Virus record (IMG/VR): IMGVR_UViG_2877982868_000002
Length of the DNA stretch: 48,765 nt
Source of the DNA: a virus
Taxonomy: Duplodnaviria; Heunggongvirae; Uroviricota; Caudoviricetes
Strand: one strand, 5' to 3'
The position numbers and the translations under genes were made by a program. The notes beneath the pieces were generated by a model. The model searched no databases and was not told the DNA's origin. It worked only from the letters and a program-made list of their open reading frames with translations. This document shows, in pieces, positions 41,425 to 48,074 of this stretch. The stretch's first letter is position 1. Every line of letters begins with the position of its first letter.

Positions 41425-41975
41425 TCCTGACCCCGCATCAGCGCGCCCTGTTGCAGTTGCTGCCTGACGGGCTGGCATGGGATAAGCGGCCGTCATCCGT
41501 TCTTGCGGCTTTGTGCCTGGGCCTCAGTCATTCCACGGAGCGTGTTTCCTGGACCGGTAACCAGATGCTGGCAGAACGTTTTCCTGATTCATCCCGTCTG
41601 CTGCTGGAAGACTGGGAGCGTTATCTGGGGTTACCGGAATGTGATATGACCGGCGCAACCATTCAGGAGCGTCAGCGTTATGCCGGGAATAAATACCGGA
41701 TGAAACCCTCTCTTAACCGTGAATTTTATATCCGGTTTGCGGCAGAGTTTGGTTATGAAATAGATATTCAGCCATCACCGGATTCACAGTGGGTCAGTAT
41801 TGTCACGATTAACAGTGAAACCGGCTACCGGAATATGAATGTGCTGGATGATATTCTCACGCCGCTGCGTATTTATGAAGGCGGTGCGCTGGAATGTATT
41901 CTGAACCGTTATAAGCCTGCATGGCAGACGTTTATTTACGTATATGCAAACAGTCACGAAGAGGAGAATATTTAA
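41415..41975 (+). CDS. Tail protein (Mu gp48-like)
   Basis: 186 aa; overlaps tail-fibre start (TAATG). Confidence 0.55.
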   Translation: MAVILTPHQRALLQLLPDGLAWDKRPSSVLAALCLGLSHSTERVSWTGNQMLAERFPDSSRLLLEDWERYLGLPECDMTGATIQERQRYAGNKYRMKPSLNREFYIRFAAEFGYEIDIQPSPDSQWVSIVTINSETGYRNMNVLDDILTPLRIYEGGALECILNRYKPAWQTFIYVYANSHEEENI

Positions 41976-42886
41976 TGTTCCATGTTGATAATAATTCCGG
42001 CGTGGCGAATATGCCTGCGCTGGCACCGGCGCAGAGTAATACCACCACCTGGTTTACCGAAGGTGACGGACAAAAAGGTATCAGCTGGATTGGTCAGGAC
42101 TGGCTGAATATTCTCCAGGCCGAACTGCTGAATATTCTGGCTGAAGCCAGTATTCAGCCGGATAAGGCGCAGTTAAACCAGCTTACGCTGTCCATTAAAG
42201 CCATTATCGCTGCGAATGCCTTTTCCCGGAAAAACAACCTGAAAGAAATTGCTGATGCCGGTGCGGAAGCCCAGCGTCTTGCCCGTGGTTATCTTGGTCT
42301 TGGGGCGCTTGCCACAAAAAACAGTCTTGGTCCCGGTGACGTTAATGCTCTGGCGAAGGATCAGAACCTTGCCGACCTGGAGAATGCGGGAACCGCCCGT
42401 AATAATCTGGATGTTTACAGCAAAAGCGAAGGTGATAACCGTTACCTGCGCAGGGAGCAGAACGGCGCAGACATTCCGGATAAAGGCGCTTTTATCGATA
42501 ACGTCGGTTTACGGGAAACGGTAAATAAGGCTGCTGATGCCCTGCCATCGGGTGGAACCGCCGTGGCAGCAAACAGACTCGCCACCCCAAGAAATATTAA
42601 TGGTGTTCCTTTTGACGGAACGCTGGATATCAACATCACGTCAGGAATGACGCAGTCAACCGCAGATGGCCGGTATGTACAGAATGTTCAGCTTGGAGCA
42701 CAGAGCTATCATTCACCCGGAGGCAATGAAATGTCATGGAATTACAGCGCACCTTCCGGTTGTATGCTTTCCGGAATTAACGTGCAGGAAACCGGCTCCC
42801 GGTCTGCGGACAATATCGGTGGGGTCTATTATCGCCCGGTTCAGATTTATATTAATAATGCCTGGAGAACGGTAAGTTCAGTGTAA
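41975..42886 (+). CDS. Tail fibre protein; C-terminal ~125 aa encoded inside invertible segment
   Basis: ATG 41975; C-terminal half shares ~50 aa near-identity with the minus-strand cassette, then diverges. Confidence 0.75.
   Translation: MFHVDNNSGVANMPALAPAQSNTTTWFTEGDGQKGISWIGQDWLNILQAELLNILAEASIQPDKAQLNQLTLSIKAIIAANAFSRKNNLKEIADAGAEAQRLARGYLGLGALATKNSLGPGDVNALAKDQNLADLENAGTARNNLDVYSKSEGDNRYLRREQNGADIPDKGAFIDNVGLRETVNKAADALPSGGTAVAANRLATPRNINGVPFDGTLDINITSGMTQSTADGRYVQNVQLGAQSYHSPGGNEMSWNYSAPSGCMLSGINVQETGSRSADNIGGVYYRPVQIYINNAWRTVSSV
42492..42517. repeat. gix-like invertase recombination site (left), inside tail-fibre gene
   Basis: TTATCGATAACG-TC-GGTTTACGGGAA; both half-sites resemble Gin/Hin half-site (TTATCCAAAACC / TTCCTGTAAACC). 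Confidence 0.6.
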
Positions 42887-43879
42887 ACCACAGAAAAGGG
42901 TGCTGAATGCACCCTCTGAATTATTCCGGTTTTTCCGGCCAGGGAATCGCCTGGTAATGCCCCTCACTGGCAATATCATTAAAGTGCATTTCTTTAAGCT
43001 GTCGGATATACGCCATCCAGCGCGTCAGCTGTAATTTATTTTCATCGCTAATCATGTCCAGTTTTAATTCCGTTTTCCAGTCATCCACAGTTTCGTTGGC
43101 TTCCTGGAGCAGCGATGAGCGGCGCTTTTCAGCAACCGTCTTCCAGTTTACCGGCACCTTTGATATCAGGCCATCAGAAAACTGCCAGTTACCGTCAATA
43201 TTCACACCTTCCGGCAGTTCGTCCACTTCAACAACAGTAAAACCTGCCGGATATAAAGCAGAGACATCTTCAGCAACAGAGCAGATAATACCCGTTACAG
43301 GCGAAATACAGAGTTTGTATTTCTTTGTGAAAAGCGGGATAGATTCATAAAAATCCCTTCCGTCCTCACTCTGGAAATACTGAACATCCTCACCATAGGG
43401 TTTGTGTTCCGGGTAATATCGTTTTACGTTAATAAGCTCCATTATTTCACCTTGTTTTTGTTGAAAAGACAAAATCATCATATATTTATTCAGATAATCT
43501 GTTTTTTGAACTACTGCACTTTTATGCGCTGGAAGCTGTTTTCCACGAACCATCTATCAGAAACTGAACAGGTCGATAATATGCGGTTACCGTTGCATTA
43601 CCATCACCAGCGACATCAAGCCCTGTAAGTACGCATCCGTCAGGAACCTCAAAAATATTATATTGCATTCCAATCGTTGACCTTGAACCTCTTCGAATGC
43701 TTTGAACATAACGTGAGTCAGCCACAGACTGCGTCATCCCCGATGTAATATTTATATCCTGCGTTCCGTCAAATGGGACACCATTAATATTTCTTGGAGT
43801 GGCGAGTTTATTCGCTGCAACAGCCGCTCCGTTCGATGGCAGGGCATTCGCGGCCCTGTTTACAGTATCCCGTAAACCG
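42505..43879. other. Gin-invertible host-range DNA segment (~1.4 kb)
   Basis: Bounded by inverted gix-like sites; carries plus-strand fibre tip, minus-strand alternative tip and minus-strand fibre-assembly gene; gin immediately adjacent. Confidence 0.6.
42921..43442 (-). CDS. Tail fibre assembly chaperone (Mu U/Tfa-like)
   Basis: ATG 43440-43442 (MELINVKRYYPEH...) with SD; C-terminus ...ISDENKLQLTRWMAY...PWPEKPE typical of Tfa family. Confidence 0.75.
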   Translation of the reverse strand: MELINVKRYYPEHKPYGEDVQYFQSEDGRDFYESIPLFTKKYKLCISPVTGIICSVAEDVSALYPAGFTVVEVDELPEGVNIDGNWQFSDGLISKVPVNWKTVAEKRRSSLLQEANETVDDWKTELKLDMISDENKLQLTRWMAYIRQLKEMHFNDIASEGHYQAIPWPEKPE

Positions 43880-43892: not shown

Positions 43893-43946
43893 GCCGTATA
43901 TCTGCTTTAAAAGGCCTTTCCACCTCTTTTTAAGGAAGGTAAATAC

Positions 43947-44507
43947 ATGCTGATTGGCTATATACGCGTATCAACAAATGACCAGAACACAGGTTTACAA
44001 AGAAATGCGCTGGAATGTGCAGGATGTGAGCAGATTTTTGAAGATAAAATGAGTGGTAAAACGACACAGCGGCCGGGACTGAAGCGGGCACTGAAGAAAC
44101 TAAAACCCGGTGACACACTGATGGTCTGGAAACTGGACAGGCTGGGGCGCAGTATGCGCCACCTTGTTGCGCTGACAGATGAATTACAGCAACAGGGGAT
44201 AAATTTTCGTAGTCTTACTGACAACATTGATACGTCAACCCCCATGGGGCGCTTCTTTTTTCACATAATGGGTGCGCTGGCAGAAATGGAGCGTGAATTA
44301 ATTGTCGAACGGACACGGGCTGGTCTTGCAGCTGCCCGTGAAAGGGGACGAACCGGCGGCAGACCCCGTCGTCTCACGCAGGAACAATACGAGCAGGTCG
44401 GGCGTTTACTGGCCGGGGGTGTCAGTCGAAGACAGGTGGCACTTATTTTTGATATCGGCCTTTCAACCCTTTATCGTTATTATCCTGCGAGCGTTTCGGA
44501 AAAATAA
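43947..44507 (+). CDS. gin: Serine DNA invertase (Gin/Hin/Pin/Cin family)
   Basis: 186 aa; MLIGYIRVSTNDQ catalytic Ser motif, resolvase core, C-terminal HTH; SD aaggaagg. Confidence 0.9.
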   Translation: MLIGYIRVSTNDQNTGLQRNALECAGCEQIFEDKMSGKTTQRPGLKRALKKLKPGDTLMVWKLDRLGRSMRHLVALTDELQQQGINFRSLTDNIDTSTPMGRFFFHIMGALAEMERELIVERTRAGLAAARERGRTGGRPRRLTQEQYEQVGRLLAGGVSRRQVALIFDIGLSTLYRYYPASVSEK

Positions 44508-44606
44508 GACGCTCTCTTTGTTGGGCCTTTACTGAATTAACGCAAAATGGCGTTTATCGGTCTGTGGATATGATAATTCAGTTTATTCAGGAACAGGCTG
44601 ATTATT

Positions 44607-46646
44607 ATGACGTCCAAATGGGTTCAACTATCATCAATGCCCGGAAACTTTACTGTTAAAGTTTCCGGTGGTACAGCGGCATTTCTTGAGGCTCCCTTTC
44701 CTCCGGCCGAAACAAAAGGAGGAATGACATTTGCTGACTGTCTCATCAGTTTTAATACACGGGATTGCCTGTGGGTAAGGCCAGTATCCGGTGATCCGAG
44801 TGTGGAAATTACCGGAGCGGGTATTGGTGCGGTCATTCCGTTAAGTGCTGATGTTGCCGGTACTGCTGAACCGTCAGACTGGGATAATGCTGAAACACAT
44901 ACCCGTCCGTCAGGAAATGAAACTGCTTCCAGCTCCCCTTCCTGGTATTACGTGGTGGTTCTTGCTGGTCAGTCAAACGGTATGGCTTACGGTGAAGGTC
45001 TGCCACTGCCGGAGACATATGACCGCCCCGAACCGCGTATTATGCAGTTAGCCCGTCGCAGTACAGTCACGCCGGGAGGTAAAGCCTGTCAGTATAACGA
45101 CATCATTCTGGCCGACCACTGTCTGCATGATGTGCAGGATATGAGTGGAAAAAATCACCCGAAAGCGGATGTGGCTAAAGGGCAATATGGCACCGTGGGT
45201 CAGGGGCTTCACATTGCCAAAAAACTGCTGCCGTTTATTCCGGCAGATGCGGGGATTCTGCTGGTTCCCTGCTGCCGTGGTGGTTCTGCATTCACGGCGG
45301 GTGCTGACGGCACGTACAGTGACAACACGGGTGCTTCAGAGGACTCAGCCCGCTGGGGTGTGGATAAGCCGCTGTATAAGGACTTAATCAGCCGGACAAA
45401 AGCGGCACTGGCGAAGAACCCGAAAAACCGCCTGCTTGCTGTGGTGTGGATGCAGGGCGAGTTTGATATTGATGCGAAGCCGACGGAGCATTCCGCGCTG
45501 TTTCTGGCGATGGTGGAAAAATTCCGCGCAGACCTGGCTGAACAGGCGGAACAGTGTACCGGTGGCAGTGCTGCTGGCGTTCCGTGGATTTGTGGCGATA
45601 CCACGTATTTCTGGAAACAGAAAAATGAACCGGCATACCAGGCAATCTATGGCGGCTACAAAAACAAAACAGATAAAAACATTCATTTCGTTCCATTAAT
45701 GACAGATGAAAATGACGCGAATGTACCCACCAACAATCCGGCAGAAGACCCGGATATTGAATCCATTGGTTATTACGGCTCAACGTGGCGTAACAGTGCC
45801 GCCACCTGGACATCTGCGGACCGGGCCAGCCATTTCAGTTCATGGGCACGTCGTGGGATTATTTCCGACCGTCTGGCCACGGCAGTTCTGACTCATGCGG
45901 GGCGAACCACAGTAAAAGCCGATGTTCCATCTTCTGAAACTGAAGCACCAGTGCCGTCACCTTCAGAAACTGAAGCAGTAACCACAACACTGCTGTCTTA
46001 TCGTGTCAGTGAGTCAGAAGGAAATCTGAAAGCCCAGGGCTGGGAGCCGGCTGGCGGTAAAGCTGAAATTATCAGTGATGCAGGAGGCACAGGTGGTAAG
46101 GCAATGAAACTGACCAAGGAAACAGGTAAATCATCTTGGTATCTGGATCATGATGCCGGTACTGGTGCTGAACTGCTGAAAAATGGTGGTTTAATCAGTT
46201 GTCGTTTTAAAGTACCTGGCGACCTGGTGGCAAACCAGTATGTCATGGGGCTTTACTGGCCGGTTTCCTCTCTGCCGCAGGGTGTCACCCTGACAGGGGA
46301 TGCAGGGAATAATCTGCTGGCATCGTTCTACATCCAGACAGACGCAAAAGACCTGAATGTGATGTACCACAATGCAAAAGTGGCAACAAATAACCAGAAA
46401 CTGGGAACCTTTGGTGCATTTGATAATGAATGGCATACGCTGGCCTTCCGTTTTGCAGGAAATAACAGCCTTCAGGTTATTCCGGTTATTGATGGTCAGG
46501 ATGGTGCCGCGTTTACCCTGACGCAGTCACCAGTAGGAACTTTCCCGGTGGACAAACTCCGCGTAACGGATATCACAAAAAATGCAACTTACCCGGTGCT
46601 GATTGACAGCATTGTGGTGGAAGTGAAAAAAGCGGTAACAGAATAA
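44607..46646 (+). CDS. Multidomain carbohydrate esterase, SGNH/SASA-like (candidate sialate O-acetylesterase, NanS-p-like) with C-terminal putative glycan-binding domain
   Basis: 679 aa; VVLAGQSNGMAYGEG motif typical of SASA/SGNH esterases; Ser/Thr/Pro linker with SETEA duplication; located in cargo position between gin and com. Confidence 0.55.
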   Translation: MTSKWVQLSSMPGNFTVKVSGGTAAFLEAPFPPAETKGGMTFADCLISFNTRDCLWVRPVSGDPSVEITGAGIGAVIPLSADVAGTAEPSDWDNAETHTRPSGNETASSSPSWYYVVVLAGQSNGMAYGEGLPLPETYDRPEPRIMQLARRSTVTPGGKACQYNDIILADHCLHDVQDMSGKNHPKADVAKGQYGTVGQGLHIAKKLLPFIPADAGILLVPCCRGGSAFTAGADGTYSDNTGASEDSARWGVDKPLYKDLISRTKAALAKNPKNRLLAVVWMQGEFDIDAKPTEHSALFLAMVEKFRADLAEQAEQCTGGSAAGVPWICGDTTYFWKQKNEPAYQAIYGGYKNKTDKNIHFVPLMTDENDANVPTNNPAEDPDIESIGYYGSTWRNSAATWTSADRASHFSSWARRGIISDRLATAVLTHAGRTTVKADVPSSETEAPVPSPSETEAVTTTLLSYRVSESEGNLKAQGWEPAGGKAEIISDAGGTGGKAMKLTKETGKSSWYLDHDAGTGAELLKNGGLISCRFKVPGDLVANQYVMGLYWPVSSLPQGVTLTGDAGNNLLASFYIQTDAKDLNVMYHNAKVATNNQKLGTFGAFDNEWHTLAFRFAGNNSLQVIPVIDGQDGAAFTLTQSPVGTFPVDKLRVTDITKNATYPVLIDSIVVEVKKAVTE

Positions 46647-46792
46647 AAAAATCCCGCCGGTCATGATATGGCTGGCGGGAGCTACCTAACCCATAAAGGA
46701 AAATAAAAATACTCCCGAAGGAGTGGTTATCAGTCGCTTCGATGTTTTTACCCGATAACGAATTATGTAGTCAATATCAAAGGTAAGGTTAT

Positions 46793-46975
46793 ATGACATT
46801 CGTTCATACAATGCTGCTTTATTTCTGCGCTGTGGTCAGTGCGTTATATCTGGTGAGCGGTGGTTATAAGGTCATCAGAAATTATATTCGCCGTAAAATT
46901 GATGATGCGGCAGCTGAAAAACTCAGTAAAACAGCACAGGCACCGTCATCCCCAAACGACCCGACCCCGCTCTGA
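46793..46975 (+). CDS. Small membrane protein
   Basis: 60 aa; SD aaggtaagg; TM helix MLLYFCAVVSALYLVSGG. Confidence 0.4.
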   Translation: MTFVHTMLLYFCAVVSALYLVSGGYKVIRNYIRRKIDDAAAEKLSKTAQAPSSPNDPTPL

Positions 46976-47010
46976 TAACGGGGCAATATACCTGCAAAAG
47001 GAGAATATTC

Positions 47011-47256
47011 ATGCCAGAGATTAAAGGCACGGTTACTGAAGAGCTTGTCAAACAGGCACTTTATTCTGAAGAAGTGAACCGCGTGCTGAAGGCGCAGGTT
47101 CGCAAGGATTTTGAGGCACAAATCGACGCATATGTTGATGAAGTGCTGGCCCGAATGGTTGGCCGTTCTCCGGCTGAAAACAGCACGGAAAATGATCCTC
47201 AACCCGTAGAGCAACCAGAGCCGGTTCAGCCCGGAACTGACGGTACTATGATGTAA
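47011..47256 (+). CDS. Small acidic hypothetical protein
   Basis: 81 aa; strong SD aaaggagaa; followed by hairpin terminator. Confidence 0.45.
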   Translation: MPEIKGTVTEELVKQALYSEEVNRVLKAQVRKDFEAQIDAYVDEVLARMVGRSPAENSTENDPQPVEQPEPVQPGTDGTMM

Positions 47257-47265
47257 CAATACCGA

Positions 47266-47285
47266 CCGGCAGGTTTCCCTGCCGG
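47266..47285 (+). terminator. Intrinsic terminator-like hairpin
   Basis: CCGGCAGG-tttc-CCTGCCGG perfect 8-bp stem immediately after stop of 47011-47256, followed by T-rich gtttgtt. Confidence 0.4.
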
Positions 47286-47574
47286 GTGAGTTTGTTAATG
47301 CACGTTTTGTGTATTTTCCCTCCTGGGAGAACAGGCAGGACATATCAGCATCCTGAAACAGGAAGCATTTTTGGGTTTGTATGTCTTGCCATTTTGAGAT
47401 CGAGAACGGCGATAGATGAGCTGTAAGGGAGTCTTACAGGCAGGGCAAACAGGCTCTTTCATCCATGATAAAGATCTCCTTTTTATGCATCTCTGCTTTA
47501 CAGGAGACCGGGGAATATCATAGGATACGCCACGAGCTCGAAGTAAAGCATTGATGCAAGTTTTTACAGATTGA

Positions 47575-47600
47575 CCCAGCATAGTTCCAGCTATGCTGGG
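47575..47600. terminator. Strong hairpin flanked by T-runs (possible bidirectional terminator/insulator upstream of com-mom)
   Basis: CCCAGCATAG-ttccag-CTATGCTGGG perfect 10-bp stem; TTTTT upstream and TTTCACTTTT downstream. Confidence 0.45.
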
Positions 47601-47652
47601 TTTCACTTTTATGTAGTATCCTGTTGATTTGAAACATACTACATATACGCGT

Positions 47653-47826
47653 GATCCTACCTTCACTGTATAAAAAGTCAATAAAATGATCATTTTATGA
47701 TCGTTTTCACCACCTAACTCTTCGTTTTCTTTAAGTAAATAATCACCTCCCTGAATCATTGTTGATGACTTTTCAATCTATTTGTTGTATCAATTAAACA
47801 AATCGAATCGATCGTTTTTGTCGATC
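47653..47826. promoter_or_regulatory. com-mom regulatory leader with clustered Dam (GATC) sites
   Basis: GATC at 47653, 47688, 47699 (three within 50 bp) and at 47810, 47823 (in CGATCG context), all upstream of com ATG. Confidence 0.4.
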
Positions 47827-47873
47827 GATTGCATGAGAAAGGCATCAACAACAAAGCAGGAGGTTATGCGGTC

Positions 47874-48074
47874 ATGTATCGAAACATACGGTGCCGACAC
47901 TGCAATAAGCTACTGGCACGGGCCAGTTTCAGTTATCTGGAAGTAAAATGTCCGCGCTGTAAAACCCTCAATCAAATCACATCTCCGAGCGCCACAGAGC
48001 ACCCCACATACACAAGGAAATCCTGTCGTGGGGAACAGAAAGCAAGTCACATCCCGAATCATCAGCACGCCTGA
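47874..48074 (+). CDS. com: Com translational activator of mom (zinc-finger)
   Basis: 66 aa from ATG 47874 with SD ggagg; [11 protein letters not shown]...CPRCKT Cys4 motif as in Mu Com; overlaps mom start. Confidence 0.75.

Follow-up and report, generated by a model that had tools for sequence, protein, structure and literature searches.

A predicted NanS-p-type sialate O-acetylesterase with a distinct N-terminal head in an Sp18-type Mu-like prophage

The window analyzed here is the whole 48,765-nucleotide stretch of the virus record IMGVR_UViG_2877982868_000002. Near its right end, between the DNA invertase gene gin and the com and mom genes of a Mu-like prophage, lies an esterase gene on the plus strand (44607..46646). 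It is an uninterrupted open reading frame (ORF) of 679 residues and occupies exactly the position given in the initial annotation of this DNA. The ORF is 100% identical to ECs_4993 (NP_313020.1) of Sp18, the Mu-like prophage of Escherichia coli O157:H7 Sakai, where it is annotated as a 'hypothetical protein'; its RefSeq name is 'DUF6645 domain-containing protein', and fragments carry the NCBI name 'sialate O-acetylesterase'. Indeed, the entire right end of the window (43900-48765) is 100% identical to Sp18. The Mu-like prophage context is borne out by this identity to an annotated element, by matches to Resolvase, HTH_7, Zn_ribbon_Com and Mom, and by a Mu transposase feature. Of 5,426 complete E. 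coli genomes, 167 contain at least 80% of the right end. According to prediction, Sp18 is an intact prophage, and packaging of its DNA is efficient and spontaneous (PMC2669165); the Sp18-type element transposes, with insertion sites that differ by strain (PMC7430833). Overall, ECs_4993 is most probably a NanS-p-type sialate 9-O-acetylesterase on an active Sp18-type Mu-like prophage, a mosaic protein with a Mu-specific head.

ECs_4993 consists of three parts joined by two linkers, all encoded on the plus strand: an N-terminal head (residues 1–80; 44607..44846), linker 1 (residues 81–111; 44847..44939), an SGNH/SASA catalytic domain (residues 112–430; 44940..45896), linker 2 (residues 431–458; 45897..45980) and a C-terminal lectin-like jelly-roll domain (residues 459–679; 45981..46643). 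The esterase core with a GQSN motif (residues 121–124), proposed in the initial annotation, is confirmed by Pfam, in which SASA (PF03629) matches residues 116–312 with E = 6.5e-12 and 46 bits against a cutoff of 24.8. In a search against solved structures, residues 104–428 match NanS (YjhS, PDB 3pt5) with E = 1.4e-118, and residues 459–674 match the C-terminal domain of phi24B NanS-p (PDB 6yp6) with E = 1e-111. At these E-values, chance homology is ruled out. The putative lectin-like domain of the initial annotation is thus the counterpart of a domain of solved structure, which Pfam recognizes as DUF6645 (PF20350) at residues 524–642 with E = 2.4e-69. Linker 2 is rich in Ser, Thr, Pro and Glu and contains the duplicated SETEA that had been noticed earlier, at residues 443–447 and 453–457 (45933-45947 and 45963-45977). 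A single-sequence AlphaFold2 (AF2) model of the full-length protein had a mean predicted local distance difference test score (pLDDT) of 33 and was unusable.

The catalytic blocks of the SGNH fold are all present in ECs_4993: GQSNG (residues 121–125) with Ser123 (44973-44975), RGGSAF (residues 224–229), MQGEFD (residues 282–287) and RASHFS (residues 406–411) with His409 (45831-45833). The corresponding blocks of 3PT5 are GQSNA (residues 17–21), RGGSAF, MQGEFD and R-x-SHFS, in which SHFS ends at residue 303 (PMC10792757); the RGGSAF and MQGEFD blocks are identical in the two proteins, and Ser123 and His409 fall on their counterparts, so that the catalytic residues are conserved. In NanS, Ser and His have been proven by mutagenesis, and the acidic residue of the triad has not been identified (PMC10017367). 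Across residues 102–673, ECs_4993 is 78% identical to NanS-p of the Shiga toxin 2 (Stx2) phage 1717. EDL933 and O104:H4 have NanS-p enzymes with O-acetylesterase activity on 5-N-acetyl-9-O-acetylneuraminic acid (Neu5,9Ac2) and mucin, and these enzymes support growth on Neu5,9Ac2 (PMC8065619). By homology, it is near certain that ECs_4993 is a NanS-p-type SGNH/SASA esterase, and the copy in the Mu-like prophage is probably active. The likeness to NanS-p noted in the initial annotation therefore holds for the body of the protein, but not for its N-terminal domain, which is unrelated to the DUF1737 head of NanS-p.

Indeed, residues 1–101 gave no Pfam match, and DUF1737 (PF08410) was not detected in them at E ≤ 0.1; as a control, the phage 1717 protein scores DUF1737 at residues 3–50 with E = 1e-15. 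The same residues cannot be aligned to the N-terminus of the lambdoid NanS-p of phage 1717. In the predicted structure, the head adopts a confident, all-beta, cupin-like fold of six strands, whereas DUF1737 comprises one helix and three strands (bioRxiv 10.64898/2026.04.10.717836). Linker 1 follows, ends in ASSSPS and is predicted to be disordered, with pLDDT values below 50 for residues 81–110. An exhaustive HMMER search with residues 1–103 returned only five matches among 1.84 billion representative proteins. Two of these reach past the head (P0004 and P0008) and are N-terminal fragments that continue into a GQSN esterase core; P0008, from Salmonella, remains fused to this core at about 27–28% identity across the head. 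A subsequent profile search added a Shigella sonnei-type N-terminal fragment (P0009) with 59–62% identity, which likewise continues into a GQSN core. A protein of 1445 residues with nine head-matching stretches (P0005) was rejected as a relative, being an Ala/Gly/Val/Thr-rich repeat protein whose match is limited to residues 53–102. Two locus scans of genome contigs gave no match, nor did a viral scan with the Salmonella head.

The head is under selection. Relative to a related Mu-borne allele (L013), the ratio of nonsynonymous to synonymous divergence (dN/dS) is 0.05 for residues 1–80 and 0.43 for the linker; relative to the Shigella-type allele, the proportion of nonsynonymous differences (pN) in the head is 0.24, with synonymous sites (pS) saturated. 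Together with the structure model, these values indicate that the head is a folded domain under purifying selection. They also bear on the alternative that the gene is a decaying, non-functional nanS-p remnant brought into the Mu right end by illegitimate recombination, with its first 100 residues a fortuitous read-through. Many database entries are partial or frameshifted, and one locus (L007) encodes only 523 residues, as such a remnant might; however, the ORF is full-length with all catalytic blocks intact in the window and in most related loci, the head region occurs at ≥95% identity in 204 of 5,426 complete E. coli genomes, its dN/dS is low and its modeled fold confident, and the Salmonella head, at 27% identity, is still joined to a GQSN core. 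The selection and conservation data already contradict this explanation, which we consider highly improbable.

The head is closely tied to Mu-like prophages. Every occurrence seen is a fusion to a NanS-type esterase and lies at the right end of such a prophage, in E. coli, Shigella-type sequences and Salmonella. With the head as the query, 12 IMG/VR loci were retrieved, and every one has the gene order baseplate, S, U, gin, esterase, DUF1378, DUF826, variable ORF, com and mom. In Salmonella, too, the head is located in the right end of a Mu-like prophage (Mu Gp45, GP46, Baseplate_J, Mu Gp48 and fibre), with gin ahead of it, and the Shigella-type head follows a resolvase. Among 50,697 phage records, only two Mu-like elements, both inserted into Stx phages, contain it.

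Distinctively, the body of the protein follows another pattern. The head is 95–98% identical to those of the Mu-borne alleles L012 and L013 and is not alignable to the lambdoid protein of phage 1717. In contrast, the core is 67–70% identical to L012 and L013 and 82% identical to 1717, and for the C-terminal domain these values are 41–47% and 79%, respectively. An even closer body belongs to a DUF1737-headed protein (P0022) in a P2-like prophage (GPO, P2 capsid, GPL, lysozyme and LysC), which is 93% identical to ECs_4993 from linker residue 96 onward; at the DNA level, its similarity begins at 44945 (residue 113), amounts to 76–89% as far as about residue 260 and then to about 98–100% up to the contig end. 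Generally, DNA similarity to the lambdoid and P2-like alleles begins at approximately 44941-44955. Relative to L013, the synonymous divergence (dS) is 0.11 in the head, 0.67 in the linker and 1.56 where the core begins. This increase locates a breakpoint in the linker, and linker 1 is a recombination breakpoint zone.

The exchange extends beyond the esterase gene. The neighboring DUF1378 ORF adjoins it in 12 of 12 related Mu-like loci and co-varies with the cassette, with 57–59% identity in L012–L015, and in Stx2 phage 1717 the gene located right after nanS-p has a DUF826 part to which the DUF826 ORF shows 47% identity. For the divergent cassette of L012, a close lambdoid donor was not found in the phage collection. 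In an E. coli contig (L020, GCA_052609765.1, 6001-7660), a NanS-p with the DUF1737-SASA-DUF6645 organization directly follows P2-like lysis genes (lysozyme and LysC); thus, NanS-p also occurs outside the lambdoid phages, and at least two capsid lineages use the DUF1737 head. Collectively, these comparisons indicate that the esterase body and the downstream small genes form a cassette that is shuffled among Mu-like, P2-like and lambdoid prophages, while the head stays with the Mu backbone.

The insert that contains the esterase gene is bordered on the left by gin (43947..44507, plus strand; Resolvase, E = 1.4e-51, and HTH_7) and on the right by com (47829..48074, plus strand; Zn_ribbon_Com, E = 3.2e-12) with mom (48028..48765, plus strand; Mom, E = 4e-77). 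In canonical Mu, com and mom come right after gin, as the initial annotation had stated: in the reference genome, only 94 bp separate the end of gin (35673) from the start of com (35768). The Sp18-type right end keeps the order gin, com, mom and a GATC-rich region upstream of com, but in place of these 94 bp it has an insert of about 3.3 kb. The initial annotation had taken the 679-residue protein itself to be the insert; it is indeed present there, yet as one of four ORFs in a module rather than as a single gene. The other three are a DUF1378 ORF of 60 residues (46793..46975, plus strand; PF07125, E = 1.2e-38), a DUF826 ORF of 81 residues (47011..47256, plus strand; PF05696, E = 2.8e-15) and, between the latter and com, a minus-strand ORF of 154 residues (47295..47759) with a CxxC...CxxC pattern, which belongs to phrog_26524, a family of unknown function. 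None of the four ORFs had a match in NCBIfam or PADLOC, and aligning the gin-com junction of Mu with the edges of the insert was uninformative.

The 154-residue ORF is the least conserved stretch of the right end among the related Mu-like loci. In most of them it is partially conserved, with 54–111 of 154 residues matched at 70–96% identity, and it may correspond to a variable slot for morons or accessory genes. In Salmonella enterica L016 (GCA_037428405.1, 9426-9910), two additional ORFs of 58 and 87 residues lie between gin and the esterase gene, the longer of which has a faint match to an Xre-like helix-turn-helix. These two additional small ORFs give the gin-com gap the look of a general hot spot for insertions among Mu-like phages. 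On the right-hand side of the insert, a GATC-rich palindrome (AATCGATCGTTTTTGTCGATCGATT, 47800-47830) is located immediately upstream of com. The regulatory region of Mu mom, upstream of com, is under Dam/OxyR control; since the palindrome occupies the Mu-equivalent position, the mom control region appears to have been kept.

Upstream of gin, the tail-fibre (S) and fibre-assembly genes (41921-43553 of the window) are highly variable in comparison to L010, L013 and L015: their identity is 63–68% in some loci and 100% in others, in prophages that are otherwise near-identical. The invertible segment with these genes occurs in both orientations among the Mu-like loci.

At the other end, the prophage abuts the adhesin gene siiEA, whereas in Sakai, Sp18 is inserted in sorM. 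The first 9.67 kb of the window (1-9684) correspond to this giant chromosomal gene and are 100% identical to EDL933 and others. The match to prophage-free genomes ends at 9671, which places the junction at 9671/9672, and the siiEA frame continues for 13 nt into the left end of the prophage (TGTAACCAGGTGA) before it meets a stop codon. Thus, siiEA seems to be truncated here by a Mu-like insertion at a site other than the sorM site of Sakai.

Around the esterase gene, a scan found promoter-like sites no more often than in shuffled sequences. Terminator-like sites number 12, against 4.9 expected, and none lies between gin and the esterase gene. Immediately past the esterase stop codon (46647-46730), an A-run precedes a GC-rich hairpin (CCCGCCGGTCATGATATGGCTGGCGGG, at approximately 46653-46679), and a second hairpin (ACTCCCGAAGGAGT, 46711-46724) is preceded on the plus strand by an A-rich stretch; read on the minus strand, this stretch is a T-run that follows the stem. 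The two hairpins resemble minus-strand or bidirectional terminators more than plus-strand ones.

The domain organization suggests how the enzyme may act. The C-terminal domain would target sialoglycans, and the core would take 9-O-acetyl groups off Neu5,9Ac2, whether free or mucin-bound; sialidases could then release the de-acetylated sialic acid, and E. coli could use it. No hydrophobic stretch resembling a signal peptide occurs in the first 50 residues of ECs_4993, and for this reason the protein is expected to leave the cell only upon phage lysis, either free or on the particle. The beneficiaries might be the population of lysogens, the phage within mucus, or the two together.

A different substrate has also been considered, namely a polysaccharide of the bacterial surface (O-antigen, capsule or colanic acid), whose de-O-acetylation would aid adsorption or block superinfection. 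Receptor modification of this kind has been raised as an open possibility for NanS-p (PMC8065619), and the gene adjoins the tail-fibre/G-segment host-range module and has one weak PHROG match, to a family of tail proteins (phrog_25867, E = 4.7e-5). Yet, the core is nearest to NanS, whose substrate is Neu5,9Ac2, and NanS-p alleles are active on Neu5,9Ac2 and mucin glycans (PMC8065619). Moreover, Pfam detected no tail-fibre or tailspike attachment domain, and the body is common to lambdoid and P2-like phages, whose receptors differ. The receptor-modifying role mentioned in the initial annotation thus found no evidence in its support, and we regard it as improbable.

The remaining question is whether the esterase travels on the particle, and it concerns the role of the head. 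The NanS-p of phage phi24B, gp84, is a virion protein in which a DUF1737 hexamer binds the capsid hexons, and it is later processed at SSP-containing linkers (bioRxiv 10.64898/2026.04.10.717836). Because that NanS-p is a virion protein, the label 'cargo' used in the initial annotation may be too narrow. Since DUF1737 docks NanS-p on the phi24B capsid, we prefer to see the Mu-type head, by analogy, as an alternative docking module for the Mu-like virion. This reading is based on the position of the head ahead of a disordered linker ending in ASSSPS, on its strict association with the Mu backbone down to 27% identity and on purifying selection; it is tentative, though a possibility to be taken seriously. 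A wider proposal is that the head is an unrecognized virion-docking module displaying a mucin-glycan esterase on a Mu-like myovirus, with the bodies as interchangeable payloads that Mu-like, P2-like and lambdoid prophages exchange through recombination within the linker and the head supplied by each phage type. This we put forward as conceivable rather than probable. If it is true, a virion-displayed sialate esterase, serving adherence to or penetration of mucus, would be general to the phages of E. coli strains that produce Shiga toxin (STEC) and not a peculiarity of phi24B.

Several points weigh against docking. The linkage of head and backbone would also arise, with no function involved, if recombination were limited to homologous sequence. 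DUF1737 heads are used by lambdoid as well as P2-like phages, which means that heads need not be capsid-specific, and a fold search with the head gave no functional assignment. The main competing explanation is a soluble enzyme of lysogenic conversion that is never part of the virion. Lysis would release it, or it would be weakly expressed together with gin; its sole use would be to supply the STEC population with de-O-acetylated sialic acid, and the Mu-type head would be an additional carbohydrate-binding or oligomerization module. The scan for promoters and terminators departs from chance in neither direction as far as this explanation is concerned and does not settle the transcription unit. 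Against it, the nearest studied relative, phi24B gp84, is a virion protein anchored via its N-terminal domain, and a generic glycan-binding module would not need the strict linkage of the head to Mu-like backbones that persists across a divergence to 27% identity. A soluble enzyme is plausible, if somewhat doubtful, and the docking reading of the head is retained as a working proposal.

To date, NanS-p esterases, which let STEC use the O-acetylated sialic acids of gut mucus, have been treated in studies as genes of lambdoid (Stx) phages. ECs_4993 shares with the NanS-p proteins of STEC (933W L0105/z1466; phi24B gp84, i.e., vb_24B_21; PDB 6yp6) the SASA/SGNH core, the C-terminal DUF6645 domain, the S/T/P-rich interdomain linkers, the lack of a signal peptide and the prophage origin, and a DUF826 gene comes after it as in Stx phages. 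However, its head is an all-beta domain of about 80 residues instead of DUF1737, and the gene belongs to a transposable Mu-like myovirus, in which it is flanked by gin and com-mom, whereas lambdoid nanS-p genes lie between stx/Q and the lysis genes. Lacking both the DUF1737 head and a place in the lambdoid late region, two characteristics of NanS-p, ECs_4993 is a variant of NanS-p and not a canonical member. A literature search yielded no mention of ECs4993 and no link between NanS-p and a Mu-like phage, although an earlier mention cannot be excluded.

NanS (YjhS, PDB 3pt5), the chromosomal 9-O-acetyl-N-acetylneuraminate esterase of E. coli, is homologous over the whole catalytic domain and has the same GQSN, RGGSAF, MQGEFD and R-x-SHFS blocks. 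It is, however, a single-domain protein of the nanCMS operon, while the phage-borne ECs_4993 adds a head, two linkers and a lectin-like C-terminal domain. The DUF1737 domain (PF08410) of phi24B gp84 resembles the Mu-type head in its placement, as a small N-terminal domain followed by a flexible linker with an SSP-type motif at its end (SISSP versus ASSSPS) and then the esterase. Yet, the two domains have no sequence similarity, and one helix and three strands in DUF1737 stand against six strands in the Mu-type head. DUF1737 is also widespread, mostly as a stand-alone protein, while the Mu-type head has only its five matches among 1.84 billion representatives.

These comparisons show that the enzyme itself is ordinary; the exchange of its head and the shuffling across phages are modestly surprising. 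A Mu-like transposable prophage adds one more, probably active NanS-p copy to roughly 4% of the complete genomes of E. coli, the majority of them STEC, and an allele inventory that relies on DUF1737 or on lambdoid surroundings would overlook this copy. The body of the enzyme moves among three unrelated phage types, and the N-terminal head varies with the phage type. A head specific to the phage type, together with the capsid docking by DUF1737, leads to a testable hypothesis on how phages may display enzymes that act on host glycans.

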